A stretch of DNA of 64,000 bases. Origin: Bdellovibrionales bacterium (lineage in GTDB: Bacteria; Bdellovibrionota; Bdellovibrionia; Bdellovibrionales; UBA1609). Position 1 is the stretch's first letter. Each line of letters begins with the position of its first letter. Positions 2,075 to 54,637 of this stretch are shown one piece after another. The stretch is from the NCBI GenBank assembly GCA_019637855.1, contig JAHBUX010000008.1:28243-92242 (forward strand), in the 5' to 3' direction. Under the pieces are notes generated by a model that did not search any database, was not told the origin of the DNA, and saw nothing but the letters and a program-made list of their open reading frames with translations. Position numbers and translations under genes: made by a program.

Positions 2075-3212
2075 AGTCCTTATCATCGCTGCGGAAGCGT
2101 CGAGCTGCCTGTATGCTCAACGTCTTTTGCAGCATTGGAAGAAACATAATATTTCCATTGAGGCTTTCGGTATAGGCGACCAAGCCATGGCCGACGAAGG
2201 CTTTGAGTGTTTGGCTCGCGCCGAGGATATGGCGGTCGTCGGTTTTCAAGAAGTCATCGCTCATTGGGATGTGATCAAGCGTGCCTTTCACGCTTGCGTG
2301 CAGGCCGCTGAAGTGCGCAAACCGCAAGTCGTGTTGTTACTGGATTATCCCGGTTTCAATCTGCGTTTTGCGGCCAAGATGAAGGCTCTTGATCTGCCCG
2401 TCGTGTACTATATCTCGCCACAAGTATGGGCGTGGAAGCAGGGCCGCGTGAAAACCATCCGTAAAGTGGTCGATAAAATGCTGGTGGTGTTTCCCTTCGA
2501 AGTGGACTTCTACCGTCAGCACGATATGCAGGTGCAGTTCGTCGGCCACCCGTTGCTTGATGAACTTAACCCGAAGCACTTCGACGAAAAAGCACGGGAT
2601 GCGCATCGCGCGAAGTACGGTTTAACTCCCGACGATGTGCTGCTGGCCTTGATGCCAGGGTCGCGCAAATCCGAACTGAAGCATCATTTGCAGACGCAAC
2701 TCGAGACTGCGCGTAAATTGTTGGCAAAACATCCGCATTTAAAAGTGGCCATGTTCGTGGCCCCGAATTTTTCCAAAGAGGAAATGCAGGGCTTGCTCAC
2801 GGGTCTGGATTTCCCTTTGATGTTGATTAAGGACGAACCTTTCTCCATGATTGATTTAGCGGACGTGGTCCTGTGTGCTTCGGGAACGGCGACGCTCATG
2901 GTGGGATTGCTCGAAAAGCCGATGGTGGTCATGTACAGAATGAACGCCATCACGGCTTGGCTCGCCAGGATGTTCGTCACTGCCACTAAGCACTTTGGTT
3001 TAATCAATCTGGTTCTCGACGAGCGCGTGGTGCCCGAGCTGTTCCAAGAGCAGGCCGGCCCGGAGGGTCTTATCGCTGAATTGGAACCGCTCATCGTCAA
3101 TCGCGAACGGCGCAAGATGGTGAAAGAGCGCTTAAAGCCCGCGAAGAATCGTTTAGGTTCTAGCGGCGCCACCGAACGTGTGGCTGCGGCGTTAGAGAAC
3201 TATTGGATTTAA
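2052..3212 (+). CDS. lpxB: lipid-A-disaccharide synthase LpxB
   Basis: 386 aa. The N-terminus KVLIIAAEASSCLYAQRLL, the YISPQVWAWKQGR motif and the overall length are typical of LpxB. Position between lpxA and lpxK. Confidence 0.9.
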   Translation: MPSAESRKVLIIAAEASSCLYAQRLLQHWKKHNISIEAFGIGDQAMADEGFECLARAEDMAVVGFQEVIAHWDVIKRAFHACVQAAEVRKPQVVLLLDYPGFNLRFAAKMKALDLPVVYYISPQVWAWKQGRVKTIRKVVDKMLVVFPFEVDFYRQHDMQVQFVGHPLLDELNPKHFDEKARDAHRAKYGLTPDDVLLALMPGSRKSELKHHLQTQLETARKLLAKHPHLKVAMFVAPNFSKEEMQGLLTGLDFPLMLIKDEPFSMIDLADVVLCASGTATLMVGLLEKPMVVMYRMNAITAWLARMFVTATKHFGLINLVLDERVVPELFQEQAGPEGLIAELEPLIVNRERRKMVKERLKPAKNRLGSSGATERVAAALENYWI

Positions 3213-32192: not shown

Positions 32193-33122
32193 CTACGGTT
32201 CATCCACCTCCATTTCGCTGGGTTGTACATTGGGCGGCACCGGTGGTTCACCGGTCCGCAGGATCTCGACGCTAGTGACACGGTAGTTGGTTGAGTAGGC
32301 ATATAGAATCGAGGACAGCCAGGCGTGTACCTCGAAGAGGCGTACGTAGCTTAAGCGCACCACTTCACCGGTCAACATGGCTAAAACTAAGTGATCAAAC
32401 ATGCCTTGGGTATTTACGCTTAAGCGCAGGTAGTTGTTGCCGAGACTGCCCAGTTGAAAAGTGATTTCATAAGATTTGCGAATGAAGTGGGAGAGGGATG
32501 CCTTCACCACGCGTCCCTCGACAAAGCCTGCGGCTGGGTTAATGGCTTGCGCGACCGGCAGTTCGCCGCGCTCGACATGGTAAAACGTGGGCGCCGGGGA
32601 GGCCGGATTGGTGGGAAAAACATCTTGCACGTAATTCAGCGTGTCGGTCGTAAACGCGCGTAGTGACCGCGTACGGGTGGCGCCAAAGATCGAGTTGGTC
32701 GAGCGTGTGTAGTACACCACGACTGGAACCAAACCGATATCGCGGAAACGATCGAACAGGACGGGGCTCACCATACTAAAACGCCAAGGGTTGGCTTCGA
32801 TGGAACAGAGCTCGTTCATTTGATCTTGCATCGAGAGACGGCTGTCTACTCGAGTTGAGCGTTGAATTCGTTGCGTAAACTGGACTTCACACTCGCGATC
32901 GCGAATCATTTCGGGACTGGAGCCAAAGCCCATCATGAACTTGCCTTCGAAGTTCCATAGGAGTCGTGCTTCCACGCGTAGCATGTAGCCCAAGCGAAAT
33001 CCTTCTTCAGTGAACGTGGGGTTGGGCGACCAACGGATACGTGGAACGCCAGGTGGCAGTTCGGTCTGAGCGTGCAAGGTGAGGGAGGTCGTAGCGAACA
33101 GGACGAAGAGAAGAGCTTTCAT
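32193..33122 (-). CDS. hypothetical secreted protein (third gene of the coupled operon)
   Basis: Signal peptide MKALLFVLFATTSLTLHA. Its ATG overlaps the upstream stop in ATGA (33119-33122). No family recognised. Confidence 0.6.
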   Translation of the reverse strand: MKALLFVLFATTSLTLHAQTELPPGVPRIRWSPNPTFTEEGFRLGYMLRVEARLLWNFEGKFMMGFGSSPEMIRDRECEVQFTQRIQRSTRVDSRLSMQDQMNELCSIEANPWRFSMVSPVLFDRFRDIGLVPVVVYYTRSTNSIFGATRTRSLRAFTTDTLNYVQDVFPTNPASPAPTFYHVERGELPVAQAINPAAGFVEGRVVKASLSHFIRKSYEITFQLGSLGNNYLRLSVNTQGMFDHLVLAMLTGEVVRLSYVRLFEVHAWLSSILYAYSTNYRVTSVEILRTGEPPVPPNVQPSEMEVDEP

Positions 33123-35134
33123 GGGTACCATCCTTTTGTCTGTCCAAAGCTATCGAGTGAGGCAAAGCCGAAGTCGGTGCGGATTTTTATGATGTGAGGA
33201 TCTTCTTTGGATTCGTACCAGCGCGAAGGTGACTCTCCCGGCGCGACGATGAGAATCCCCCGCGCGCGAATTTTGATGTCGGGATGTCGCCGGATAAATT
33301 CCGATAGACGTTGCAGGCCTTGTCGACATTTCTTGCTGTTCAGTGTCGCGAAGGGACTGCATTGGATGGGCACTTCGATCCGCGCCAGCAACGTCTCTTG
33401 CAGTTCGGCCACTTGTCGGCGCTCGCTCTGAATGTCTGCAAGTGTTCCGGTATCGTTGGCCTCTGCGGCACTCCAATCGAGGAATGCTTTGATCTCTTTC
33501 CAGTCGGCACGTGCGGGAATAGATTCGCGCAGTTTCATGCCTGACTCGCTTAATTCTTCGAAGTCGGCGCCCACGCGTAGAACCTCGGTGGCTCGGTCAA
33601 ACGTCGCAGGAGATTGGCGCATGAGGATCTCGAGCTGACGCAGAGAGTGCCAACGCTGTCCGATGCTCAGCGACGGATCGAATTCCATGATCAGACCGGT
33701 GTTGAGATGGATGTTTTCTTTGTAGGCTTCAAAGTGTTCAACACCCGTCGCCAGGCGGTGGAAACTCGGATTCAATAGTATAGGCATGACGAATTCGTAC
33801 ATGCGGACGGGAGTGAATATGTAGGGCAGTTGAACCATGGCATTCCATTCGCCATAGTGGATCTGCGGAAGATCTCCTTGCACCAGATGTATCTGCAAGA
33901 GTGAACTTTCGCGCCCCTCAAGGCGCGTGATACTGCCGTTGTAAAGTGCGCGCGCGAAGGAACGTAGTCCATCTATGCATTGCAGATCCGAGAGTCCTGT
34001 CCAAAACGAATCGTCACAGCCGACATGGTAGCCATAGTCGGTGCGAATCAGTTCCGACAGGCGAGCGGGGATCTGGGCGAGATGCGCATTGGAGAATTCA
34101 AATGCCTCTTTAGCCAAGGCGATAGTGTCGTTGCCGGGAATCGCCAGCAGTTCCTCGCGGTGTTTGTCTAGCCATGGGCGAAACAGCTGCACCATCTGCG
34201 CTTGTACTTGGATCAAGAAGACGATCTGCACTTGAGGCTCGCGTGAATGCTGCGAAAGCAACTCGATGTCACGCATTTGCTCGGTCCAGCTGGACGTGAT
34301 GTTTGTTTGTCGTTCGGGCGGCGAAGGGTTTAACTTGGCCTCCGCAAACTGATAGGTGACCGATTCGGCCGCAAAGGCCACCGAGCGGGCACCGAAGGCG
34401 GCCCAAGGCCCGATGGCCAAAGCGCTGCTTCCGAGGATTTTCGCCGCCAGTGGCGGCGCTACCTGCCATAAGAAAATGGACGCCAGGGTTGCGGCACCGA
34501 TGAGAGTGAGCGAAACGCGTTGGCGACTTTCCAGCTCCGTTTGTGCCGTTTTTAAAAGGTCCGTGACCATGTGATCGAAGCCGGCGAGACCGGGGTTGCC
34601 AATGCCTTTTAAGTGAAAGTGACTCAGCTCGCGAGCTAGATCGGCGAAGCTTTGGGCGGTCTCCTGGCGGTTTGTGAACGGACACTTTGTTAGATCTCTG
34701 TGATCTAGAGAGGAGTAACCGCCTTCGCCTCCGCTCACAAAGAGCGAATGAACGGCAAAAATAGCAGAGGTGATCAAATGAAAGCGCGCGCGGGCGCCGA
34801 CATCCGCAGTCTGCAAATTCGCGAGACTGTCCTTTAGCTCGACTAGCAGATCCGCCACCGTAGTGGAAAAGCGCTGACAACGCTGCGAGGGGTTGTTGGT
34901 CATTGCCGTGGACCAGGCCTCCGCGAAGGCTTCGGTTCGGTTTAGCAACTGCTGCCGGCTCTGCAGGTAAGTTTTGTCATGTAGCGTGGCGGGGACTCCG
35001 TTGCGCAGCAAAGCGAGGGTTTGCAAAGTCTCGGATTCCGACCGAGCCTGCGGAGGGAATCCTAGGAAAAAAGAGAGAGCGACTGCCCACACTCGACGTG
35101 CGGCAGCCGCTTTCTTGCAAGGCAATGGTCTCAT
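33119..35134 (-). CDS. hypothetical 671-aa envelope protein (second gene of the coupled operon)
   Basis: The internal ATG at 35134 overlaps the upstream stop in ATGA (35131-35134). The N-terminus is signal-like (RRVWAVALSFFLGFPPQA). Central hydrophobic segments (LTLIGAATLASIFLW, ILGSSALAIGPWAAFGA). No family recognised. Confidence 0.6.
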   Translation of the reverse strand: MRPLPCKKAAAARRVWAVALSFFLGFPPQARSESETLQTLALLRNGVPATLHDKTYLQSRQQLLNRTEAFAEAWSTAMTNNPSQRCQRFSTTVADLLVELKDSLANLQTADVGARARFHLITSAIFAVHSLFVSGGEGGYSSLDHRDLTKCPFTNRQETAQSFADLARELSHFHLKGIGNPGLAGFDHMVTDLLKTAQTELESRQRVSLTLIGAATLASIFLWQVAPPLAAKILGSSALAIGPWAAFGARSVAFAAESVTYQFAEAKLNPSPPERQTNITSSWTEQMRDIELLSQHSREPQVQIVFLIQVQAQMVQLFRPWLDKHREELLAIPGNDTIALAKEAFEFSNAHLAQIPARLSELIRTDYGYHVGCDDSFWTGLSDLQCIDGLRSFARALYNGSITRLEGRESSLLQIHLVQGDLPQIHYGEWNAMVQLPYIFTPVRMYEFVMPILLNPSFHRLATGVEHFEAYKENIHLNTGLIMEFDPSLSIGQRWHSLRQLEILMRQSPATFDRATEVLRVGADFEELSESGMKLRESIPARADWKEIKAFLDWSAAEANDTGTLADIQSERRQVAELQETLLARIEVPIQCSPFATLNSKKCRQGLQRLSEFIRRHPDIKIRARGILIVAPGESPSRWYESKEDPHIIKIRTDFGFASLDSFGQTKGWYP

Positions 35135-37092
35135 CGCGAGTCTTGATTGGTCAGCTCGACGGTAAGACGGTTCACCTGATCTTTGGGAATCAGGCTTTCG
35201 AGGTAAAGAGCCTCGTGGCCTTCGCCATAACGGCGTCCTTCGTTGTAACCCTCCATCATAAATGCATAGAGAGGAACAGCCGAGCCCACGGTGACCGCTG
35301 TAGCCCACGGAAGATCGAAGTTTTTAAGCTTCGGTTTCAGAGAGCTCACGGCTTGATTGGCCACATTGCGGGTTTTTTGAGCCGCCTCGGCGACGCCGGC
35401 ACGAGCTCGTTGCCCAAAGGTGGGTTGGGCTGCCGCGATCGACACGACTTCGTCAGCTGAAGCTTCCGTCGTCTGAACTGCCGGTGTGGCACCAACAGGC
35501 GTGGTTAGCGGAATATCGCCATCGTATTTCGCTTCGGCTACTGACTTTTTGCTGCGCGAGCGTGTGGTTTTGGCTTTGGCAATAGGCACACCACTTTGTT
35601 CCGCTTCTTCGACGGTCAAGCGTGTGGGGGTGATCGCGCCCGTGCTGTCGGCGACCATCAAGAAGTCTTTTCCGCCTTCGTCAGGATGTTGAAAGCGGAT
35701 CTGTCGAACGATGTCGTCGGCTTCGGCGGCGGGTAGTTCACGCGACGCTACGATCACAGGGCGCGGACTTAGGGTATCCCAGCGTGACATTGAAAACACG
35801 ATGCGACGATTTCCATTGAGCGCCATATCTTCCCATTGATCTACTACGGCGTATTTCAGGCCCGGCATATTGGTAGGCTCGAATTGCTGAAAGCCGGCCG
35901 AGGCATGCTGGGCACGATCCAATCCTAAGCCACGTGCGATGTTCGCATCTACACCGAGCGCGGTAATGTCTCGACGTACGATCTCTTGCGAGCCGAGAGG
36001 AAGATTGGAGATTGATCTACGCAGGCCGTAGCGAGCGGTGGGACCGGCCTCGCTGCTGGCTTTGTACGGGAACAGTGAGCTCACCTTGTTACGTGCGGTC
36101 TTGTAAGACGAACTCACTTTTTCCGCGGCGGTAGTAAGTGTGCGTCGTGGGCTGAACTCGTGCACAAAGTGGCGTGCGCCCTCAAAACCGTGAAAGCCGG
36201 CAAAGGCGCCTAGAGCCAAAGAGGTGCCTGCGACCCAAAGTCCGTCGCGCAGCAGTTCTCCGCTGCCGTCCACGCGAATGCGGTCATCAAGCTGCGCTTG
36301 AAGGTAAGCGGTGCGTGCGGCCACATCCTTATCATAGAGGTTGTTCTCCGATAGTCGGCGCAAGCCCAGCTGCAGCTTCATCACTTTAGCGCGGGCTTGA
36401 TCGGGTTCGTTGAAGATCTCATCGATCAGCAAAGCCGAGTAGGCGTCGGCCCGCTCGGGATCACGCTCTGAAATCACGGCGGTTAGCAGCTCGGACATCT
36501 CATCGTTGGGGTTGATGACCTCTTTCACCACGTCTGCACGAGCAGGCTGTGATTGCGCCATGGCGATCTTCAGTTGCTCCACTTCGCGATCGCGTTGCTG
36601 CAGAGCTTGTTGATGAATGACATCTATCGAATCTTTGCCCAGCTCATTGGCCGGAGTGGGATTGATTAGAGTTTGCGTTGATTCCGTAAGCTCCCGGGTG
36701 GTGTCTTGAATGCCCTTACCCACCGAAGTCAGCTGATCTTCGACGTAAGTAGCTGCTTTGCCTACTTGATCCTTTACTGTGTTGTAGCCTCTTTCATAAA
36801 AAGGAGCGTTGTCGTCCGAGGGACGGGAAGTCGATGTGGGTGGAGGAAGGGAGGCATAGGGAGGAGGTGAGTTCTGGGAAGCACTACGCTCTTGATTTTG
36901 CTGAGGAGTGGACCCGTCGGAAGTTCTGGTTGGCGGTGGGGTTTGTGTTTGCGGTCTGGCCGGTTCAGTTTTTGTTACCTCTGGAGTCGGCTGTCGATTT
37001 TGTTCCGGTGGCGTGTTGCTTTTTCTTTCGCAGGCCGAAATCAGGACTGCCGACGCCACTAGTGCGAGCGTCATCGATCGAAAACGGGTCAT
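35131..37092 (-). CDS. hypothetical lipoprotein with Pro/Thr/Gln-rich linker (first gene of the coupled operon)
   Basis: Strong GGAGGTG SD and a lipobox (AVLISAC). About 90 aa of low-complexity P/T/Q/S sequence, then two hydrophobic segments (WVAGTSLALGAFAGF, ATAVTVGSAVPLYAFMM). No family recognised. Confidence 0.65.
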   Translation of the reverse strand: MTRFRSMTLALVASAVLISACERKSNTPPEQNRQPTPEVTKTEPARPQTQTPPPTRTSDGSTPQQNQERSASQNSPPPYASLPPPTSTSRPSDDNAPFYERGYNTVKDQVGKAATYVEDQLTSVGKGIQDTTRELTESTQTLINPTPANELGKDSIDVIHQQALQQRDREVEQLKIAMAQSQPARADVVKEVINPNDEMSELLTAVISERDPERADAYSALLIDEIFNEPDQARAKVMKLQLGLRRLSENNLYDKDVAARTAYLQAQLDDRIRVDGSGELLRDGLWVAGTSLALGAFAGFHGFEGARHFVHEFSPRRTLTTAAEKVSSSYKTARNKVSSLFPYKASSEAGPTARYGLRRSISNLPLGSQEIVRRDITALGVDANIARGLGLDRAQHASAGFQQFEPTNMPGLKYAVVDQWEDMALNGNRRIVFSMSRWDTLSPRPVIVASRELPAAEADDIVRQIRFQHPDEGGKDFLMVADSTGAITPTRLTVEEAEQSGVPIAKAKTTRSRSKKSVAEAKYDGDIPLTTPVGATPAVQTTEASADEVVSIAAAQPTFGQRARAGVAEAAQKTRNVANQAVSSLKPKLKNFDLPWATAVTVGSAVPLYAFMMEGYNEGRRYGEGHEALYLESLIPKDQVNRLTVELTNQDSR

Positions 37093-37209: not shown

Positions 37210-37373
37210 GTGCGGGACTCAAGTACATTTGATTGCTTTAGTCGTGAGGGTTCTTTTTTGGTTTGGAGAAGGCATTTAGCCCCGGCGTTTAAGTCATCCG
37301 CTGTTGTTTACATGCGGATTTTACCCGCGCGGTGAGAGAGTGGGGGTCCTGAGATTACTTTTGTGGAGCCGCC

Positions 37374-37408
37374 TTAAAACAAAAGCGCGAGGTATAAACC
37401 TCGCGCTT
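37374..37408 (-). terminator. rho-independent terminator after lipoprotein paralogue 1
   Basis: Perfect 11-bp stem AAGCGCGAGGT / ACCTCGCGCTT with a 4-nt loop. On the minus strand it is followed by TTGTTTTAA. It starts 34 nt after the stop at 37443. Confidence 0.8.
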
Positions 37409-37442
37409 CGAAGAACTTCATGATGGAGAAACTTCAGGGCTG

Positions 37443-38780
37443 CTAGTCTACTTTATAAGAGAACCACAAGTCGAAGATCAGGTCGATCGAGCCGTCGATG
37501 CGTCCCACGATGGACTTCATCAAGGTTTGGTTGCCGTACTGGTCGGTCTCTGCAAACTCTGTGGAGAAATCTAAATCGATGTAAGAGATGCCGGCTTGGC
37601 GCAAGCTGATTAACTCGTGGGCTTGAGCGATGCCGTCGTGGTTGCGGTCCATCCACACTCTTAGTCGTGAATAGACAGCGTCACGTTGATCGATAAAGCC
37701 ATCGGCCTTGCCGGACTGGAAGCGTCCGTCTTCAGTGGTGCCATCGTACTTAGCCAGAGCGGCGTAACCGTCGGCGGCGAACTTCTGATCCGGTCCCAGT
37801 GTTGCGTTACCAAAGAGTTGATCGATGCCGCGTACGCGTCCACGTGCATCCGGCAGGGCGAGCATGCCGTATTCGTGGTTGGTGAACCAGGAGATGCGAA
37901 CCGGTCTGTGGTCGTTCTTGGCGCCAAGTATATCGAACATCACACCGTCTTCTTGCGAGCTCAGGGCGATAGGCAGAGGACGGGTCGGATCTGAGTTCAC
38001 ATGGATGACGAGCGGTGAAGTCTTGTTGTCACACAGGGCGTCCGCAACTTCAGACGCAACAGAGGTGTCTTGGTTGGCGGCGTAGACGATGTTCATCGAA
38101 CCAAATGCGCTTCTGTACGATGCGTTGGCAAAATCAAGGTTGACCACAGAGCCACTGGCAGGTTTGGCCGAAGGGCAAATCTTGGCGAGGTCTGCGTAGG
38201 TGACACCCTTTTTGTAGATCATCGATTTGATTGTGCTCGTGTTGCTCGTGCAGGCCTGATCATTCACAGAGAGAGTCATCGCGAGACCCTCGGCGAAGGC
38301 ACGTTTCAAGCTGGTTTTCGATTTAACATAGGCATCCGAGCAGGTGAGTACGAAAGCGACGCCATCACCGCCGGGTTCAGCCAATTCGGTTTTGGGTGGC
38401 GGGATCACAGTGCGTGGATCTGTCACCACTCCGCTGGCGCTGTCTCCGCTCGAAGGTTGATTCACCGAACCACCGGCGTTGCCACCGTTGGACGGTTGAT
38501 TGATGACTCCACCGCTGCCGCCGTTGTTGCTGCCATTTGAAGGTTGATTGATGACTCCGCCAGCGCCACTGTTGCCTGATCCGGGCTGTCTGATCACGCC
38601 ACCGGCGTTGTCTTCGACGCCAGGTTGCTTGATGACTCCGTTAGCTGCGTCGTCGGCCTGACTGCTGCTCATCACAGAGGTCTTGGCTAGAAATTGGCTT
38701 TTGCTGGAGAACTTGGTTGCGGAGCATGCGGATAAGGCCGCTGCCCCAAATAAAAGCAGAACTACACGCTGTACGTTCAC
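37443..38780 (-). CDS. lipoprotein paralogue 1: Gly-rich G-G-V-I-x-Q-P repeat linker + EF-hand-like C-terminal domain
   Basis: GTG at 38780 lies 5-6 nt after GGGGGA. Lipobox ALSAC. Repeats GGVI[KRN]QP[GS]. The C-terminus has a canonical 12-residue EF-hand loop DRNHDGIAQAHE within an FDILG...LFGNAT...DGFIDQRD..RVW.DRNHDG pattern. Confidence 0.7.
   Translation of the reverse strand: MNVQRVVLLLFGAAALSACSATKFSSKSQFLAKTSVMSSSQADDAANGVIKQPGVEDNAGGVIRQPGSGNSGAGGVINQPSNGSNNGGSGGVINQPSNGGNAGGSVNQPSSGDSASGVVTDPRTVIPPPKTELAEPGGDGVAFVLTCSDAYVKSKTSLKRAFAEGLAMTLSVNDQACTSNTSTIKSMIYKKGVTYADLAKICPSAKPASGSVVNLDFANASYRSAFGSMNIVYAANQDTSVASEVADALCDNKTSPLVIHVNSDPTRPLPIALSSQEDGVMFDILGAKNDHRPVRISWFTNHEYGMLALPDARGRVRGIDQLFGNATLGPDQKFAADGYAALAKYDGTTEDGRFQSGKADGFIDQRDAVYSRLRVWMDRNHDGIAQAHELISLRQAGISYIDLDFSTEFAETDQYGNQTLMKSIVGRIDGSIDLIFDLWFSYKVD
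38454..38642 (-). repeat. in-frame imperfect tandem repeat encoding the Gly-rich QP linker
   Basis: The DNA unit GGTTGATTGATGACTCC[A/G]CC recurs. It encodes NGVIKQPG / GGVIRQPG / GGVINQPSNG x2 / GGSVNQPS. Confidence 0.8.
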
Positions 38781-38970
38781 GATATCCCCCACGGTTCGTT
38801 TCGTTGTGTGTTTGTGAGAATCGGAGCAACGTCCAGCGAATGGCTCTCTTGAATAGATTAAGCGCAGTGCGTCGGAAGGTAAAATAGAAACTTGAGGAAT
38901 TACGATTTTGTGAAGGTGATTTTATTAAAAGTGCAGTGGATACAGGGGGTTATTTATTAAAAAATGGGAA

Positions 38971-38983
38971 TCTCAAATTGAGA
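38971..38983. promoter_or_regulatory. palindrome TCTCA-AAT-TGAGA upstream of paralogue 1 (conserved with 40769-40781)
   Basis: The same 5+3+5 palindrome lies at an equivalent distance (about 185-190 nt) upstream of both paralogue starts. Both copies are followed by AAAT[T/A]TGTGAA. Confidence 0.4.
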
Positions 38984-39322
38984 ACAGTGAAATTGTGAAT
39001 AGCTGGCCCCTCGCCGTGCAGATTTCGCAGCCCAACAGTTTCTGCGAATGGTTGCTCTCCACGGGCGGAGGAATGCTCAAGTCTGCCTATCTTGTTCCAT
39101 AGAATCTTGGCTATCCGAAACTCGGTCACTGGTCCGGCTGGCCGTCCCTTTCTGCAGCTCTACGGCCAATGGGTTTGGAAAGTTCTGGCGTAAACGGTCG
39201 GCACAACGGTGTCTGTTTGTGACTGTAGAAGGTGCTTTTTTCGGTGCAGATTATCTGCACGAAAAGGGGCCAGCTTTAGATGGTTCGTGCGAGAAGATGC
39301 GCAGCACTTTTTCGAGACTCGC

Positions 39323-39344
39323 GCGCGAGGGTTCGCCCTCGCGC
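39323..39344 (-). terminator. GC-rich hairpin after lipoprotein paralogue 2 (no U-tract)
   Basis: GCGCGAGGG-ttcg-CCCTCGCGC starts 13 nt after the stop at 39358. It is homologous to the stem of the 37374-37408 terminator and shares the flank CCTCGCGCTTCGAA. Confidence 0.4.
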
Positions 39345-39357
39345 TTCGAAAGTAGGC

Positions 39358-40584
39358 CTAGTTCAAGTCGATCTTGAACCACAAGTCGAAGATCAGATCC
39401 ATGGAGCCGTCGCTGCGGCCGACGACTGATTTCATCAGCGTCTCGTTGCCGTGCTTGTCGGTTTCTGCGAATTCGGTGGAGTAGCTTAAGTCGATGTAAG
39501 TGATTCCCGAGGCGCGGAGACTCTTAAGCTCATGCGGTTGAGCGATGCCGTCATGGTTGCGATCGACCCACACACGTAGGCGTGAATAAACAGCGTCACG
39601 CTGATCGATAAAGCCATCGGCCTTACCGGATTGAAAGCGGCCGTCTTCCGTCGTGCCGTCGTATTTGGCGAGAGCGGCGTAGCCGTCGTCGGCCGACTTG
39701 TTATCGGGTCCAATTGTAGCGTTACCAAAGAGTTCATTGATGTTGCGCACGCGTCCTGCAGAATCCGGAAGTGCGAGCAAACCGTATTCGTTGTTGGTAA
39801 ACCAGGAGATGCGAACAGGCATGTTGTTACCTAAGATGTCGAACGTCACGCCGTCTTCAGGCGCGCTCAGCGCGATAGGCAGAGGGCGGGTCGGATCGGA
39901 GTTCAGATGAATGACCAGAGGTGAAGTTTTCTCCGCGCACAAGTCGTCGGCTACTTCGCTCGCGGGCGAAGTTCCTTTGTTCATCGCATAGGCAACATAA
40001 ATTCGGTCGCCGTATGAGGGGAACGTGGAATTGCCAAGCTTTAATGCCACGGAAGCATTGGGTGACATAGCATTCAGAGAAGGGCAAATCTTGGCCATCT
40101 CTCCGAAGGTGATGATGTCTTTCTTGGTCACGAGATCCTTGATTACGCTTGCGTTGCTTGTGCAGACTTTATTGTTTATGAGCAGGCTCATGGGAAGATT
40201 CTGAGCCACGGCCCGCTTGAAAGTTGTCTCAGTTGATGAAAGGGCGTCCGAACACATGCGTGTGAGATTGATGCCATCATTCAGAGTGTAGTGCACAGGC
40301 TCTTCTTCGTTAATGGGTTGCGAGACGTTGCCGCCCGCTCCGTCACTACCGGGTTGCGAGATGTTGCCGCCAGTGCCGTCACTGCCAGGCTGCTTAATCA
40401 CTCCGCCACTATCTTCGTCTGTCGAAGGCTGATTGACTTGCCCGTTGTATTCGTCGCCTGCGTTGCGTGAGGCGAAAACGGAGGTCTTTGCTAGAACTGC
40501 CGATTTGGTTGAAAACTTTGTTGGGGAGCAGGCGGCCATAGCCACTGTCCCAAGTAGAATGAAAACAATTTGCTTTACGTTCAC
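39358..40584 (-). CDS. lipoprotein paralogue 2 (shorter repeat linker, same EF-hand-like C-terminal domain)
   Basis: GTG at 40584 after GGGGGA. Lipobox AMAAC. Repeats GGVIKQPGSDGTGGNISQPGSDGAGGNVSQP. The C-terminal 165 aa or so are highly similar to paralogue 1, including a 40-aa identical run. Confidence 0.7.
   Translation of the reverse strand: MNVKQIVFILLGTVAMAACSPTKFSTKSAVLAKTSVFASRNAGDEYNGQVNQPSTDEDSGGVIKQPGSDGTGGNISQPGSDGAGGNVSQPINEEEPVHYTLNDGINLTRMCSDALSSTETTFKRAVAQNLPMSLLINNKVCTSNASVIKDLVTKKDIITFGEMAKICPSLNAMSPNASVALKLGNSTFPSYGDRIYVAYAMNKGTSPASEVADDLCAEKTSPLVIHLNSDPTRPLPIALSAPEDGVTFDILGNNMPVRISWFTNNEYGLLALPDSAGRVRNINELFGNATIGPDNKSADDGYAALAKYDGTTEDGRFQSGKADGFIDQRDAVYSRLRVWVDRNHDGIAQPHELKSLRASGITYIDLSYSTEFAETDKHGNETLMKSVVGRSDGSMDLIFDLWFKIDLN
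40315..40446 (-). repeat. in-frame Gly-rich QP repeat region of paralogue 2
   Basis: Encodes NGQVNQPS..GGVIKQPGSDGTGGNISQPGSDGAGGNVSQP. It has fewer units than paralogue 1. Confidence 0.7.
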
Positions 40585-40768
40585 AAAATCCCCCACGGTC
40601 ACAATTAAATGCTTGTGAGATCTGTCTAACGTCCAGCGATTGCTCTCTACTTAAGATTAAGGCGATTGCGAATGTGGGTAAATGAGAAAGTTTTAGATTG
40701 TGAAGATTTATAGATCGAGCGCAGAAAAATAGAACAACAACAGTGGTTTAACACGGCCAAGAATTAAG

Positions 40769-40781
40769 TCTCAAACTGAGA
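40769..40781. promoter_or_regulatory. palindrome TCTCA-AAC-TGAGA in the divergent region between paralogue 2 and the DUF4214 gene
   Basis: Counterpart of 38971-38983. It also lies about 120 nt upstream of the sigma-54 promoter candidate at 40898, a position compatible with an activator site. Confidence 0.4.
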
Positions 40782-40897
40782 CCTTAAAATATGTGAAGAC
40801 GAGCGCACGTGGTGTTAGCCCTAACTACAAATGTTGAAAGGTAAGCCGCTACCGAAGAGCGAATTCACGATGTCTTCAACTGTGGTACTTGTGAGCG

Positions 40898-40939: not shown

Positions 40940-42271
40940 GTGATAAGGAAATATAGCTTCTCTGTTTTTATTCTTTCATTTTTCACTGTCTCAGCTTGGG
41001 CCACGGATCCGCATATCACCGATGATCTCACGATCAGCAAAACGGTGCTGGGTTCTCCTTTATCAATACGCTCGGCAGATCAGTTCGCCGGCGCCATCGA
41101 CTCTCTAATATGGAAGGGCGTAGAGTTCATCAACCGTTACGACCATGGCCGCCAGCTGCAATCGGCTTCCTCATTTGATGGTTTGGGAGAATGTTTCAAC
41201 CCCACAGAGGCGGGCCGTTCCGCCGACCAGCGGAGCGTGGACAGCACGAGCGTGCTTCTGCGCCGGACTGCCACAGGCAATTATCTTGAGACGACCTCAC
41301 AAATGGCTTTTTGGTTGCGTCCCAATCAAAGCTATCCCAATAAATGTGGGTCGACCAATTTGGTCGTGTCTCAAAATACGACAGCTCTGTCCGATCACCG
41401 TCTGACCAAACGTGTGGCCATTGGCTATAAGGAGTTTGAAAACGTCATCGACTATCAAGTCACCTACCATGTTCCGGAGGCGCGTAAATCGGCCACGTTT
41501 GAGGCTTTGACGGGCTATATGCCTCCGACCTTTTCAGTGTTTTCAATTTACAATACAAAGACAGACAAAGTGGAGGCGTTGAGCGATGGCCCGGGTGAAC
41601 AGGCTCATCCCGTGATTCTATCCACATCCGATGGCTCTGCGGCCATGGCTGTGATCTCGCCTCTGAAGGCGGGCTATGGTCGTTGGCGGTTCGTGAAAGT
41701 CCTGGGACCGACCAACAAATGGAACTGTGTTTTTCGTGAGACCAGTTTAAAGGCTGGCGACTTCACCTATAAATGCTTGGTCGTGGTGGGCAGCTTGGCG
41801 CAGGTTACGGATACCGTGCGTGCGCTCTCAAAACGTTTCCAGAAAACTCCCGATCTTTCCACGCCCGTAGCGGGAGCAAGTGACATCGCTCCGGTCTATA
41901 GTTCTTCTGCCGAAGCTCGTGCCTTTAAAGGTCGTGAGCAATATGTGGAGATGTTGTATCGCTCGTTTTTAGGACGCCCGTCGGAGCCGGCCGGTCGTGC
42001 TTGGCATGTGGATGTCATCAAGTCCTGGGGCTGCGCGACGGATGTGCGGATATTCGCTGATTCACCGGAGTTCAATGCCTATCGTGCGGCGAGCGATTTG
42101 ATCTATGTGACCGCGCTCTACAATGCGACTTTGTTCCGCGCGCCGGATACAGAGGGATTGAACTTTCACTTAGACCTGCTTCGTCGCAAACTGATCACGC
42201 GCGATAGGATGCTGGAAGACTTCCTGGCCAGCCGCGAATTCACTCAGACGTGCAAGAAGTATAACTTTTAG
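40940..42271 (+). CDS. secreted protein: unknown N-terminal domain + two C-terminal DUF4214-like repeats
   Basis: Signal peptide MIRKYSFSVFILSFFTVSAWA. The C-terminus carries two copies of the DUF4214-type pattern (YRSFLGRPSEPAGRAWHVD...SPEF and LYNATLFRAPDTEGLNFHLD...SREF). Confidence 0.6.
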   Translation: MIRKYSFSVFILSFFTVSAWATDPHITDDLTISKTVLGSPLSIRSADQFAGAIDSLIWKGVEFINRYDHGRQLQSASSFDGLGECFNPTEAGRSADQRSVDSTSVLLRRTATGNYLETTSQMAFWLRPNQSYPNKCGSTNLVVSQNTTALSDHRLTKRVAIGYKEFENVIDYQVTYHVPEARKSATFEALTGYMPPTFSVFSIYNTKTDKVEALSDGPGEQAHPVILSTSDGSAAMAVISPLKAGYGRWRFVKVLGPTNKWNCVFRETSLKAGDFTYKCLVVVGSLAQVTDTVRALSKRFQKTPDLSTPVAGASDIAPVYSSSAEARAFKGREQYVEMLYRSFLGRPSEPAGRAWHVDVIKSWGCATDVRIFADSPEFNAYRAASDLIYVTALYNATLFRAPDTEGLNFHLDLLRRKLITRDRMLEDFLASREFTQTCKKYNF

Positions 42272-42843
42272 TCCTTCAGGCAAGCCGCGCTGGTCTGCAA
42301 AAGCCGACTGGCGCGTTGAACAGCAGTGACATTTTGATAAAAGGCCGCCCATTTCTGGGCCGGCTGGTCATTGTTGCTGCTGTTGCACAGGGGGTACTTG
42401 TACTCGTTACCCACCATCGCATCGCTGGTGGTGAAACCAAAGTTCTTTAAGCTGCTGGCATTGTCGATCACCGGTTGATTGACTTTGGCAACGGCTGGCA
42501 GGGTCTGCGCTACTGCGCGCGTGAAGCTGTCCACTCTTCCATTTTGCAGGTCAGCTAGTGTGGAACCGATGCCATCTTCGGCAATGCGGTATTGGGCGGT
42601 GAGCGCTTTTAAAGTCTTGTTGGTTTGCGCAATGTATTCCGAACGTTCGGGATTGAAACACTTCTCGACATTGGCGTCGACTGCGGGTGCTAACGCCAGG
42701 GCTCCGCGGACACCGGTGAGGAAACTGCTCGAGGCTTTCTCGGCGCCACAAGAGTCGGCGGCGGCGGCGCTAAATGAAAATGAAATGCTACAGGTGAAAA
42801 TACCAAGGATGAGATGCGATGGAGTGAAGAAATGTTTTTTCAA
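42268..42843 (-). CDS. hypothetical secreted protein
   Basis: TTG start with a signal-like N-terminus (ILGIFTCSISFSFSAAAA). Four Cys. No family recognised. Convergent with the previous gene, with a 4-nt overlap. Confidence 0.45.
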   Translation of the reverse strand: MKKHFFTPSHLILGIFTCSISFSFSAAAADSCGAEKASSSFLTGVRGALALAPAVDANVEKCFNPERSEYIAQTNKTLKALTAQYRIAEDGIGSTLADLQNGRVDSFTRAVAQTLPAVAKVNQPVIDNASSLKNFGFTTSDAMVGNEYKYPLCNSSNNDQPAQKWAAFYQNVTAVQRASRLLQTSAACLKD

Positions 42844-43023: not shown

Positions 43024-44835
43024 ATGAAACATCCTGTCTCCGCCTATTTTAATCGCATGGTTGTCTTTCCTTTTCCCGCTCTTAGTCCCGATGGCAAGCG
43101 CGTGGCGTACTTGTCTTCGGTCACTGGTTCGCCGCAGATTTGGTTGGGTTCGATGTGCAAGGGCTTGCTCGAATTCCCGCGCCCGTTGACGGCGGGTACA
43201 GAAAAGCAGCCTTACGTTTTGGGGCCAAAGATCGATTGGGCTGGGCCGGACCGTTTGGTGGCGGTGATGGATCGTCACGGCGATGAAGCCACTTTTATTG
43301 AAGTGACGAACTTGAAAACCGGCGAGCGTTACACCCTCGACGATAAGCCCGGAACGCGCTCTTCTTTTAGTCACATCGGCCGTGACAACAATACGATTTT
43401 CCTCAGCTCGAACCGCGACAATCCGGTTGCGCAGGCTCTTTACACCTTCGATATGAAAAATCGTCGGCTGGAGAAATGGTTCGAGGATAGCAAGAGTTTC
43501 AGTGCCAGCTGGCTGGGCGAGAAGACCTTCAAAGGCCATCGCCTGTTTATGCTCTACCGTGGAGCGGGTCATGTTTCGATTCATGGTATTCATCCGAAGA
43601 CCAAAAAGGTTATCGATGTTTTTCACAAAGAAGACGGCATTTTTATTCCGGTGGGTGAGTGGCGCAAAGGCAAGTGGTTGGTGGTCAGCGATCAAGGCCG
43701 TCAATTCTCGGGTCTGGCGATCTACGATTTTAAGACCGGAGAGTTCAAGTGGCTTGGCCGCGATCAGTGGGATGTGGAGTTCGCCGATGTTTCGCCGGAC
43801 AAAAAGCATCTGGTGGTCAGCCGCAATGTGGCCGGTCGCAGTGAAGTCGAAATTTTGACCTGGCCGGCGTTGAAAAAGCTTGCGCTTAAAGTGCCGAAGG
43901 ATGGCGTGATCGATGGTTTGAGTTTCAGCAAGAATGGTAAAGAGGCTGTATTTAGCATGCAGTCTCCGACCGAGACGCGAAACCTCTATCACCTGGACCT
44001 GCGTTCGCGCAAAGTGCGACCGTTGACCGACACCTGGACATCGCCGGTTCCGCATGCGGCTTTGGTAAAGCCTGAGTTGGTGAAGTACGAATCGAACGGC
44101 AAATCGATCCACGCATGGTTTTATCGGCCGAAGGGCGCCAAGAAAGACGCTTCGCTGCCGGTGATTGTGTGGCCGCATGGGGGGCCGCAGTTTCAAGAGC
44201 GCGCCTCCATTCGCCCGATCTTTCAGTACTTCGTTGCGCGTGGTTTTGCGGTTTGGGCGCCGAACCCTTCGGGTTCAACCGGTTATGGCAAGGACTTCAT
44301 GCGTGCCATCGAGGGGCAGTGGGGCACGGCCGATTTGCCTGATATGCAAAATGGAATTGCGTGGCTGAAGAGCAGCGGTTGGATCGATGAGAAGCGTATC
44401 GCCATCATGGGCGGCTCTTACGGAGGTTATATGACCTTGCGTTCGATCACTCGTTTGCCTGAGGTGTTCAAGGTGGCAGTGGATATTTTTGGCCCCTCCA
44501 ACTTACTCACCTTCGCAAAGTCCGTCCCTCCAGATTGGACACCGTATATGGATCAGCTTCTAGGCAATCCGGAGCGCGACAAAGAGAAACTGATGGAACA
44601 ATCGCCGATCTTCTCTTTGGACAAAATTCGCTGTCCGCTATTGGTGATCCAAGGCGCGAAAGACCCGCGCGTCGTGCAGGCCGAATCGGACCAGATCGTG
44701 GAGGCGTTGAAGAAACGTGGTCACCCTGTCGATTATATTGTGTTCGAGGATGAGGGCCACGGTTTCTTCAAATTGGAGAATGAGCTGAAGGCGTACACAG
44801 CGGCGGCGGATTTTCTTGAGAAGTATCTGGGGTGA
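43024..44835 (+). CDS. S9-family serine peptidase (prolyl oligopeptidase / acylaminoacyl-peptidase type)
   Basis: N-terminal beta-propeller-like region. The C-terminal alpha/beta hydrolase domain has the nucleophile motif GGSYGGYM, plus later Asp and His (QGAKDPRV, FEDEGHGF). Confidence 0.85.
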   Translation: MKHPVSAYFNRMVVFPFPALSPDGKRVAYLSSVTGSPQIWLGSMCKGLLEFPRPLTAGTEKQPYVLGPKIDWAGPDRLVAVMDRHGDEATFIEVTNLKTGERYTLDDKPGTRSSFSHIGRDNNTIFLSSNRDNPVAQALYTFDMKNRRLEKWFEDSKSFSASWLGEKTFKGHRLFMLYRGAGHVSIHGIHPKTKKVIDVFHKEDGIFIPVGEWRKGKWLVVSDQGRQFSGLAIYDFKTGEFKWLGRDQWDVEFADVSPDKKHLVVSRNVAGRSEVEILTWPALKKLALKVPKDGVIDGLSFSKNGKEAVFSMQSPTETRNLYHLDLRSRKVRPLTDTWTSPVPHAALVKPELVKYESNGKSIHAWFYRPKGAKKDASLPVIVWPHGGPQFQERASIRPIFQYFVARGFAVWAPNPSGSTGYGKDFMRAIEGQWGTADLPDMQNGIAWLKSSGWIDEKRIAIMGGSYGGYMTLRSITRLPEVFKVAVDIFGPSNLLTFAKSVPPDWTPYMDQLLGNPERDKEKLMEQSPIFSLDKIRCPLLVIQGAKDPRVVQAESDQIVEALKKRGHPVDYIVFEDEGHGFFKLENELKAYTAAADFLEKYLG

Positions 44836-54560: not shown

Positions 54561-54637
54561 TGGCGATCCGGGCAGGACTCGAACCTGCGACCTGCTGCTT
54601 AGAAGGCAGCTGCTCTATCCAGCTGAGCTACCGGACC
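54561..54637 (-). tRNA. tRNA-Arg (anticodon UCU), CCA encoded
   Basis: The minus strand reads GGTCCGG-TA-GCTC-AGCTGGATA-GAGC-A-GCTGC-CTTCTAA-GCAGC-AGGTC-GCAGG-TTCGAGT-CCTGC-CCGGATC-G-CCA. All four stems pair (one G-U in the acceptor stem). 77 nt. Confidence 0.95.

Follow-up and report, generated by a model that had tools for sequence, protein, structure and literature searches.

Tandem lipoprotein genes of a Bdellovibrionales bacterium end in a homologue of the FrpC self-processing module that carries serine in place of the catalytic aspartate

The DNA analysed here is a stretch of 64,000 nucleotides from contig JAHBUX010000008.1 of a Bdellovibrionales bacterium (assembly GCA_019637855.1), in the following called the window. 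It contains two co-oriented genes, A and B, which lie head-to-tail on the minus strand and encode predicted lipoproteins of 445 and 408 residues (Table 1). In both genes the start codon stands in the same context, a GGGGGA ribosome-binding site followed by five nucleotides and then GTGAACGTA. As this context is shared and as the corresponding proteins P0001 and P0002 begin there, the GTG-initiated open reading frames (ORFs) of 449 and 414 residues in a mechanical ORF list are regarded as too long. The two proteins are 57% identical (BLASTP, E=8e-176). A tblastn search found no third copy within the window, and two more paralogues, P0032 and P0035 (KF799_11075 and KF799_11080), are assigned to the contig on which A and B lie, which has 158,300 bp and comes from a Bdellovibrionales metagenome-assembled genome (MAG). 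We are highly confident that A and B are old tandem paralogues from a lipoprotein family that is multi-copy and occurs mainly in Bdellovibrionota, and that their C-terminal domain is homologous to FrpC's self-processing module (SPM) and has an SPM-like fold. As a tandem duplication the pair is ordinary, and what makes it interesting is the module, with its new architectural context and the polymorphism at its nucleophile position.

The SPM has been described for type I-secreted RTX proteins of more than 1,000 residues that possess an Asp-Pro site, and its occurrence was stated to be "exclusively" in such large RTX proteins (PMC7078468). It is a module of 177 residues that is unfolded without Ca2+ and folds when Ca2+ is present (PMC7078468). 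With four to five Ca2+ bound, the SPM twists the Asp414-Pro415 amide, the Asp414 side chain attacks its own carbonyl and the bond breaks, and the resulting C-terminal aspartic anhydride acylates nearby lysines (PMC7078468, PMC7846742). The SPM of FrpC works independently of its passenger (PMC7846742).

The relationship of the window proteins to this module is seen at the level of sequence and of predicted structure. The single sequence of gene A matches the FrpC SPM (6sjw) in phmmer with E=8.5e-12, and a profile built from 116 homologues reaches E=1.2e-39 and covers chain residues 19-173 of 179. An AlphaFold2 model computed on the family alignment has a mean predicted local distance difference test score (pLDDT) of 80.9, which exceeds 90 over residues 256-445. 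When this model was compared with the PDB by Foldseek, it proved to have the SPM fold, with 6sjw and 6sjx as the only significant matches (E=4e-13; target-normalised TM-scores of 0.78 and 0.76, respectively). The match is specific, because the SPM fold, in which two perpendicular beta-sheets are arranged with the N- and C-terminal strands paired, was reported as novel and without structural relatives (PMC7078468). Residues with a described role in FrpC are also retained. The Trp-Trp pair W451 and W519 corresponds to W298 and W376 of P0001 (115/116 homologues each), L475-F-G477 to L322-F-G324, and G491 to G338 (116/116), and the port residues D579-L582 are found in the terminal FDLWF strand as D437-L438-W439-F440, in which D437-L438 corresponds to D579-L580. 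Each of the columns that make up the Trp pair and the "narrow port", as these residues are listed for FrpC (PMC7078468), is kept in 91-116 of the 116 homologues.

The initial annotation had associated the C-terminal domain with Ca2+-binding modules of large RTX-type adhesins. Its putative calcium-binding type and its relation to RTX proteins stand, and the assignment to a generic adhesin module does not, as the domain is homologous to the self-processing module of FrpC and ApxIVA and hence belongs in part to an already characterised family. Indeed, Pfam already files A and B under this module: PF26745, named "SPM", is precomputed on 116 of 116 homologues, and our own Pfam-A and NCBIfam scans of both proteins were made with a Pfam copy that lacks PF26745 and gave no match. 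What is new is the lipoprotein context and the Ser/Thr/Cys/Asp polymorphism at the nucleophile position. The proteins end with the SPM-like module, possess a lipoprotein signal peptide and have no type I secretion signal; RTX repeats (PF00353) were not detected in A or B by the Pfam scans and occur only in the distant match P0116.

The most informative feature, which the initial annotation missed, is the serine that takes the place of the catalytic aspartate in front of the invariant proline. A motif x-P-L-[VI]-[IV] aligns with D414-P-L-A-L of FrpC via intermediates such as SPILVDVSGNGF and DPLILDLDGNGV, and in the model of gene A the strand beta1 (residues 257-260) follows directly after Ser-Pro. 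At the position of FrpC D414 both window proteins have a serine with the codon TCA, so that the anhydride route is excluded at the homologous site. As neither the catalytic aspartate nor the RTX context is present, the genes are not filed as FrpC-class clip-and-link proteins. The serine is, however, not a local degeneration. Among 245 close relatives the junction residue is Ser in 201, Asp in 34, Thr in 5 and Cys in 2, and a separate sample seeded with a Vibrio RTX-type SPM, in which the canonical LDLDGDG loop is kept, gave 41 Asp, 35 Ser, 9 Thr and 7 Cys. Pooled over 365 collected sequences, 337 of which could be aligned, the counts are Ser 237, Asp 74, Thr 15, Cys 9, Glu 1 and Tyr 1, whereas Ala, Gly or Asn were never found in these aligned sequences. 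Ser, Thr or Cys thus replaces Asp in most of the sampled SPM members. Parsimony on a crude tree (unweighted pair group method with arithmetic mean) requires at least 20 switches between these residues. From these counts and the repeated switching we conclude that serine is one state of a four-state position that extends over the whole superfamily. Asp-Pro and Ser-Pro paralogues are found together in one MAG (JSU04_12505 and JSU04_19435), and of the cultured strains, Bdellovibrio sp. HCB117 carries the Ser-Pro form, the Asp-Pro form being present in HCB209, HCB185ZH and HCB274. A full-text search of the literature returned no paper on SPMs in lipoproteins, on SPMs in Bdellovibrio, or on SPMs with Ser-, Thr- or Cys-Pro junctions.

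In sequence, the calcium sites are retained in part. For FrpC, four sites were described, formed by D419-G424 together with D456, by D462-E474, by D499-D511 and by D521-E532, and a transient fifth one involves D414, D478 and D579 (PMC7078468). The EF-hand loop DRNHDGIAQ[AP]HE that had been noted initially is indeed present in both copies and corresponds to the FrpC site D521-E532; its columns are almost invariant, with D378 in 116/116, G383 in 115/116 and E389 in 116/116 homologues. The D499 site is also present, although a 10-residue insertion (GTTEDGRFQS) interrupts it in 43 of the 116 members, both window genes among them. At the fifth site the window proteins possess Ser, Asn and Asp, the Asn being the equivalent of FrpC position 478; the D478N variant of FrpC still cleaves and is only moderately slower.

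At their N-termini both proteins have a positively charged region, a hydrophobic core and a lipobox, ALSAC in A and AMAAC in B, as expected for substrates of signal peptidase II. The initial prediction that they are lipoproteins is thereby upheld, and the lipobox cysteine is kept in 102 of 116 homologues. The cysteine is followed by a conserved motif, in full C-[SAT]-x-[AT]-K-F-x-x-K-x-x-x-L-x-x-x-S-V-F-G, which is maintained even in members with quite different passengers. Its best conserved columns are F24 (95/116), K27 (87), L31 (80), V36 (84) and F37 (82), and residues 27-33 are helical in the model. The motif may be a signal for lipoprotein sorting or surface export, or a docking motif. 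About one third of the family has F-Q-N-C instead of a canonical lipobox (Asn at -1 in 41/116, Gln at -2 in 42/116; examples are P0086, P0129, P0133 and the gene at L032 5242-6573), contrary to the usual [GAS]-C rule. Either the signal peptidase II of Bdellovibrionota has a relaxed specificity or such members are handled differently.

Between this motif and the folded part of the protein lies a linker that is very probably disordered (pLDDT below 50 over residues 44-136 of gene A). It consists of repeats of 12-16 residues (GGVINQPSNGxN and GSDGxGGN[IV]SQP), which extend over 38420-38620 in gene A and 40315-40383 in gene B. As the repeat number differs between A and B and the linker length across the family ranges from 0 to 213 residues, repeats seem to be gained and lost, which suggests that their number sets the reach of the tether. 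The two proteins could face either side of the outer membrane, and the initially proposed surface tethering with a ligand-facing region is conjectural.

The linker leads into an alpha/beta domain with four cysteines, which is the passenger of the SPM-like module. C147, C177, C202 and C250 of gene A are kept in 98-112 of 116 homologues, and neither Foldseek nor the sequence profile found a relative of this domain in the PDB. A hidden Markov model built here detects it in about 80% of the family's close members and nowhere in the RTX-seeded set. The middle region had been described as strongly diverged, and at the level of the family it is indeed variable; between A and B, however, it consists of the conserved four-cysteine domain and the repeat linker. 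With a ratio of nonsynonymous to synonymous substitution rates (dN/dS) of 0.26 in the four-cysteine domain there is no evidence of diversifying selection on the middle region of the pair. About 20% of the close relatives carry quite different passengers in front of the same C-terminal module, including Cys-rich repeat proteins of 600-900 residues. Such proteins are P0129 and P0133 (773-916 residues) and P0148, P0213 and P0242 (600-714 residues), in which many tandem repeats of about 45 residues, of the type C.FNG.T..HG.SV...C.SE.R.C.NG.LSGS...SC, are located between an FQNC signal and the module. In P0322 (274 residues, from a JGI metagenome) an M23 peptidoglycan endopeptidase domain (PF01551) directly precedes a Ser-Pro SPM (EISPIILDLDGDGIE), so that here an enzyme is the passenger of the module, outside of both the RTX and the lipoprotein contexts.

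A search of cluster representatives with the module gave 11,607 matches at E<=1e-3 and 273 at E<=1e-30. The SPM is hence much more widespread than the giant RTX proteins, and it also occurs on small Sec-exported lipoproteins. In 150 of the 150 best representatives the SPM-like module ends the protein. Among species-representative genomes, 68 loci were obtained, nearly all from Bdellovibrionota (Bdellovibrionales, Pseudobdellovibrionaceae, Oligoflexales, Halobacteriovorax) and a few from Pyrinomonadaceae or Blastocatellia, Campylobacterales and Thermoanaerobaculia. Several copies per genome are common, with further tandem pairs at loci L014 and L025. No conserved neighbouring gene, sortase-like or other, was found across the 68 loci. 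One apparently stand-alone Ser-Pro SPM, P0340 (L069 2090-3043; 180 residues, start MSPIVIDV), was set aside. It looks like a frameshifted or misassembled longer gene, because an in-frame ...GGCCQPVT precedes it after a stop codon and an ORF with a signal peptide (2090-2425) lies upstream in another frame. A true stand-alone form would have argued for a function independent of processing.

For the family members with an Asp-Pro junction, clip-and-link is the straightforward expectation: the module should be clipped off and leave an aspartic anhydride on the lipid-anchored passenger, which would cross-link to a nearby amine. For the Ser-Pro, Thr-Pro and Cys-Pro members we tentatively favour the view that they are still self-processing junctions, in which a hydroxyl or thiol group is the nucleophile, and we give this view somewhat less than an even chance. 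The protein would be exported unfolded by Sec and then lipidated. In the Ca2+-containing envelope or exterior the SPM-like domain would fold around Ca2+, using at least the canonical D-x-N-x-D-G...E loop, and through this folding the x-Pro junction would be clamped in the conserved port (W, LFG, G, FDLWF), with strand beta1 on one side and the last strand on the other. In the Ser-Pro proteins of the window, formation of an ester by an N-to-O acyl shift at Thr254-Ser255 appears most plausible, and a thioester would be expected for Cys. Shedding of the module would then leave the passenger on its lipid anchor, either free or transferred to an acceptor. Ser, Asp, Thr and Cys are the nucleophiles of known protein autoprocessing. 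We favour alternative nucleophiles because the position accepts only these four residues, because it switches frequently without Ala, Gly or Asn being found, because Cys is among the four, and because the port is invariant. A chemical role of the junction residue is also favoured since Cys would be a poor hydrogen-bond cap or Ca2+ ligand. The portability of the module, seen in the roughly 20% of relatives with other passengers, parallels the passenger-independence of the FrpC SPM (PMC7846742), and the cleavage that D478N FrpC still performs may by analogy lend support, as the window proteins have Asn at that position.

Several points weigh against processing at these junctions. In FrpC the aspartate is essential, as D414A abolishes both cleavage and ligation (PMC7846742), and no data on a Ser substitution at position 414 were found in the literature. 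The amide strained in FrpC lies C-terminal to residue 414, and attack of a serine on its own carbonyl would require a four-membered lactone; the N-to-O shift would act on a different bond, one that is not known to be strained. Two of the four EF-hand-like Ca2+ sites are degenerate in the window proteins (D419/D421/D423 is replaced by HVNSD, and D462-E474 by LPDARGRVRGIDQ), and the third is the one interrupted by the 10-residue insertion. In the broad sample, forms with Ser, Thr or Cys at the junction tend to lack the carboxylate at position 478 and to have Asn instead, which fits a loss of the fifth, bond-twisting Ca2+ site. Finally, Ser, Thr and Asp are classic Asx/ST-turn residues before Pro, so that a purely structural constraint could produce much of the junction pattern.

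These points lead to the alternative of a non-cleaving "pseudo-SPM", which envelope lipoproteins would retain for binding or as a Ca2+-dependent cap for folding or stability, and in which the serine merely keeps the pre-Pro turn. This is close to the Ca2+-dependent module that the initial annotation had in mind, and we consider it a serious possibility that nevertheless stops short of being probable. It accords with the loss of processing in D414A (PMC7846742), and a Ser nucleophile at this bond is without precedent. The location of the strained FrpC bond C-terminal to the junction residue, the degenerate Ca2+ sites 1 and 2 and the tendency of the Ser/Thr/Cys group towards Asn rather than Asp at the fifth-site position all agree with it, as does the fact that Ser, Thr and Asp are typical of ST/Asx turns. 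A dead site should drift, yet Ser, Asp, Thr or Cys occupies the junction in 335 of the 337 aligned sequences, with no Ala, Gly or Asn and in spite of the many switches; Cys recurs there nine times, Pro and the port residues are near-invariant within the Ser-Pro clade itself, and an Asn at position 478 is tolerated by FrpC. The module could alternatively be a C-terminal sorting or secretion tag that carries diverse lipoprotein passengers through the outer membrane or onto it, for instance by acting as a Ca2+-driven folding ratchet, and that may be removed by a separate enzyme as in type IX secretion. We think that this is unlikely, although in the top 150 representatives the module without exception forms the extreme C-terminus, behind diverse passengers and within one phylum, although the N-terminal tether motif, being conserved, points to a common pathway of handling, and although the SPM is unfolded without Ca2+ and folds with it (PMC7078468). 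No conserved neighbour, sortase-like or other, accompanies the genes in the 68 loci, no link to a secretion system was found, and the module has 190 residues and is homologous to a domain with a known and different activity. Classical clip-and-link could also be imagined at an Asp-Pro nine residues downstream of the Ser-Pro, in NS-D264-P265-TRP of P0001, which the two paralogues have in a common position, as do some close relatives, and which by length, as extrapolated from the phmmer alignment, falls within a few residues of FrpC P415. This site was rejected as the scissile bond, and we regard the idea as highly improbable: its columns are variable (Asp in 43/116, Pro in 16/116), the invariant Pro with the [DSTC]-P-[LI]-[VIL]-[VIL] motif that matches FrpC D414-PLAL stands upstream behind the Ser, and D264 corresponds in the alignment to FrpC D423, which is a ligand in the first, degenerate Ca2+ loop.

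In comparison with the FrpC SPM, A and B are homologous over nearly the whole 177-residue module and share its otherwise unique fold, the invariant Pro where strand beta1 begins, the Trp-Trp pair, the port formed by LFG and G, the C-terminal D-L strand and the canonical EF-hand loop (D521-E532), and like it the module works, or in the case of A and B is found, behind arbitrary passengers. They differ from it in the Ser for the catalytic Asp, the Asn at position 478, the two degenerate Ca2+ loops out of four and the 10-residue insertion in the third. Moreover, the module of A and B is located at the extreme C-terminus and not internally, the proteins have about 400 residues compared with more than 1,000, and they carry a Sec/lipoprotein signal peptide in place of RTX repeats and a type I secretion signal. 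Their host belongs to the Bdellovibrionota, whereas the hosts of FrpC are proteobacterial pathogens.

Other systems resemble the module only in the way they work. In SEA, GPS/GAIN, Nup98, Hint/intein and hedgehog domains and in pyruvoyl enzymes, a Ser, Thr or Cys beside a strained backbone gives rise to an ester or thioester, which is then hydrolysed or passed on to another nucleophile, and the residues used are the same Ser/Thr/Cys set as at the junction described here. These N-to-O/S acyl-shift systems have no sequence or fold relation to the SPM, and cleavage in them takes place on the N-terminal side of the nucleophile; the bond that the SPM strains is on the C-terminal side. The type IX C-terminal domain is likewise portable and forms the extreme C-terminal end of numerous unrelated envelope proteins in one phylum, and it is removed while the new C-terminus becomes covalently attached. 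Its fold is unrelated, however, and type IX tags need a sortase-like enzyme and a secretion machine, whereas here there are no linked partner genes, and cleavage, if it occurs, would be autocatalytic. Outer-membrane lipoproteins that have long disordered linkers, such as LpoB of E. coli, share with A and B the N-terminal lipid anchor, the long flexible linker and the small globular domain, without homology. With the tether of Braun's lipoprotein Lpp there is no homology either; in Asp-Pro relatives the C-terminus could similarly become attached to an amine, and peptidoglycan or any other acceptor would be speculation.

No natural protein module other than the SPM is known to produce a reactive anhydride on demand, and the NeissLock ligation tools are built on it. 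If the Ser, Thr and Cys forms are active, they would represent new inducible protein-ligation chemistries and a self-contained way of covalent attachment for the envelope proteins of predators; if they are inactive, they would constitute a large natural control set for how the fold activates a bond. The most far-reaching view is that SPMs with Ser-, Thr- or Cys-Pro are an unrecognised class, and the majority class, of Ca2+-triggered self-processing domains that make an ester or thioester, and that together with their Asp-Pro paralogues they arm Bdellovibrionota lipoproteins and fasten passengers covalently. We judge this to be rather unlikely. Predation of the Bdellovibrio type is Ca2+-dependent, and if that view were true, contact with Ca2+ would shed the module and fasten the passenger either to a prey surface protein, resulting in irreversible attachment, or to the predator cell wall.

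Table 1. Coordinates of genes A and B, of the parts of their products and of the flanking elements within the window.
Feature	Position	Strand	Basis and remarks
Gene A, lipoprotein with C-terminal SPM-like domain	37443..38780	-	445 codons plus stop; P0001, carries precomputed PF26745
Gene A signal peptide and lipobox MNVQRVVLLLFGAAALSA-C19	38724..38780	-	residues 1-19, read from sequence
Gene A post-Cys tether motif C-x3-K-F-x2-K-x3-L-x4-V-F/M	38667..38723	-	residues 20-38; column counts
Gene A disordered Gly/Asn/Gln/Pro/Ser linker, GGVINQPSNG-type repeats	38373..38666	-	residues 39-136
Gene A four-Cys alpha/beta passenger domain	38019..38372	-	residues 137-254; pLDDT about 90-98
Gene A Ser255-Pro256 junction (TCA CCG), equivalent to FrpC Asp414-Pro415	38013..38018	-	Pro invariant in 116/116; preceding residue Ser, Asp, Thr or Cys only
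Gene A SPM-like domain, reaches the C-terminus	37446..38015	-	residues 256-445; phmmer, family profile, Foldseek, dN/dS 0.16
Gene A canonical EF-hand loop DRNHDGIAQAHE, equivalent to FrpC Ca2+ site D521-E532	37614..37649	-	alignment to FrpC; sites from PMC7078468
Gene A leader with ribosome-binding site and blocks TCGCTGGACGTT, TCTCACAA, CTTAATCT, CCGTGGGGGAT	38781..38890	-	66% identity to gene B leader, z=8.4
Palindrome TCTCA-N3-TGAGA, candidate operator	38971..38983	.	about 197 nucleotides upstream of gene A
Gene A 3' hairpin with T-tract, predicted intrinsic terminator	37372..37412	-	terminator scan: 12-bp stem, then TGTTTT; shared flank TTCGAAGCGCGAGG
Gene B, paralogue of gene A	39358..40584	-	408 codons plus stop; P0002, carries PF26745
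Gene B signal peptide and lipobox MNVKQIVFILLGTVAMAA-C19	40528..40584	-	read from sequence
Gene B shorter repeat linker	40279..40470	-	36-nucleotide tandem repeat at 40315-40383 (Tandem Repeats Finder) and protein alignment
Gene B four-Cys passenger domain	39925..40278	-	residues 103-220; alignment to gene A
Gene B Ser221-Pro222 junction (TCA CCT)	39919..39924	-	same alignment column as in gene A
Gene B SPM-like domain	39361..39921	-	residues 222-408; 82% identical to the A domain, E=8e-98; PF26745
Gene B canonical EF-hand loop DRNHDGIAQPHE	39529..39564	-	sequence and alignment
Gene B leader with ribosome-binding site	40585..40694	-	similarity to gene A leader
Palindrome TCTCA-N3-TGAGA	40769..40781	.	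about 191 nucleotides upstream of gene B
Gene B 3' hairpin, same stem, other loop, no T-tract	39323..39350	-	sequence comparison with gene A

The age of the duplication and the selection acting on it were estimated by the Nei-Gojobori method on a codon alignment of genes A and B. Over the whole coding sequence dN/dS is 0.26 at a dS of about 1.2, which is near saturation, and for the C-terminal domain the values are 0.16 and 0.84; in the four-cysteine domain synonymous sites are near saturation as well, and the linkers, with their unequal repeat numbers, do not give a reliable alignment. A run of 40 residues that is identical in both proteins contains 16 nucleotide differences and no amino-acid change, so that the earlier observation of essentially silent divergence was right and its count of about 13 too low. 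From the silent differences in this run, the dS of about 0.8-1.2 and the low dN/dS it follows that the copies are old and constrained. The initial suggestion that the entire module was duplicated in tandem long ago and has been under purifying selection thus finds support, with ratios well below 1. In the 3' half dS is lower, which may be due either to codon constraint or to an older conversion event, two causes that the data do not separate. What was duplicated would have been the coding sequence together with its promoter-proximal leader and terminator hairpin; after the duplication, the number of linker repeats and the passenger would have drifted while the SPM-like module stayed constrained.

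A continuous shared 5' region of about 190 nucleotides had been proposed. All of its quoted blocks are present, but the similarity is confined to about 110 nucleotides and the isolated palindrome: from -110 to -1 the leaders are 66% identical (z=8.4 compared with shuffled sequences), and from -111 to -400 the similarity is, with the exception of the palindrome, at the level of shuffles (z<=0.7). The blocks were not found upstream of orthologues in other genomes, and the conservation of the leader is therefore a property of this pair. A search of the region against Rfam gave nothing at E<=1, so that the conserved leader corresponds to no known RNA family. The palindrome TCTCA-N3-TGAGA occurs in the window only at these two places, compared with 0.12 expected occurrences, and 13 times in 69 Bdellovibrionota loci, roughly ten times the chance rate. 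One of these (L005, 5794-5806) lies about 190 nucleotides upstream of a paralogue. In Bdellovibrio sp. HCB209 (L032) two copies (2918-2930 and 3055-3067) are located in a divergent intergenic region, upstream of a gene for a secreted protein of 647 residues that precedes the family gene, and further occurrences are found in L014 (5636-5648), L034, L028 and others. The palindrome looks like a candidate transcription-factor operator of a secreted-protein regulon.

At the 3' ends, both genes have a hairpin of the type TTCGAAGCGCGAGG-loop-CCTCGCGC, which is found nowhere else in the window; the loops differ, and only that of gene A is followed by a T-tract.

Immediately downstream of gene A, a lipoprotein of 653 residues is predicted (35131-37092, minus strand; lipobox LISAC) that has a Pro/Thr/Gln-rich disordered linker. 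It is overlapped by an ORF of up to 729 residues (33119-35308, minus strand) with an internal start that resembles a signal peptide. Neither has a significant Pfam or NCBIfam match, and tblastn against the related loci gave no match. Upstream of gene B, a divergent gene (40940-42271, plus strand) encodes a secreted protein that has a DUF4214 domain at its C-terminus (E=2.6e-17), followed by a signal-peptide protein of 191 residues without family assignment (42268-42843, minus strand) and a peptidase of the S9 prolyl-oligopeptidase family with an N-terminal beta-propeller (43024-44835, plus strand). In view of these three genes, the neighbourhood is rich in envelope and secreted proteins. The sole tRNA gene of the window, a tRNA-Arg with the anticodon TCT (54561-54637, minus strand), has no obvious link to the gene pair.

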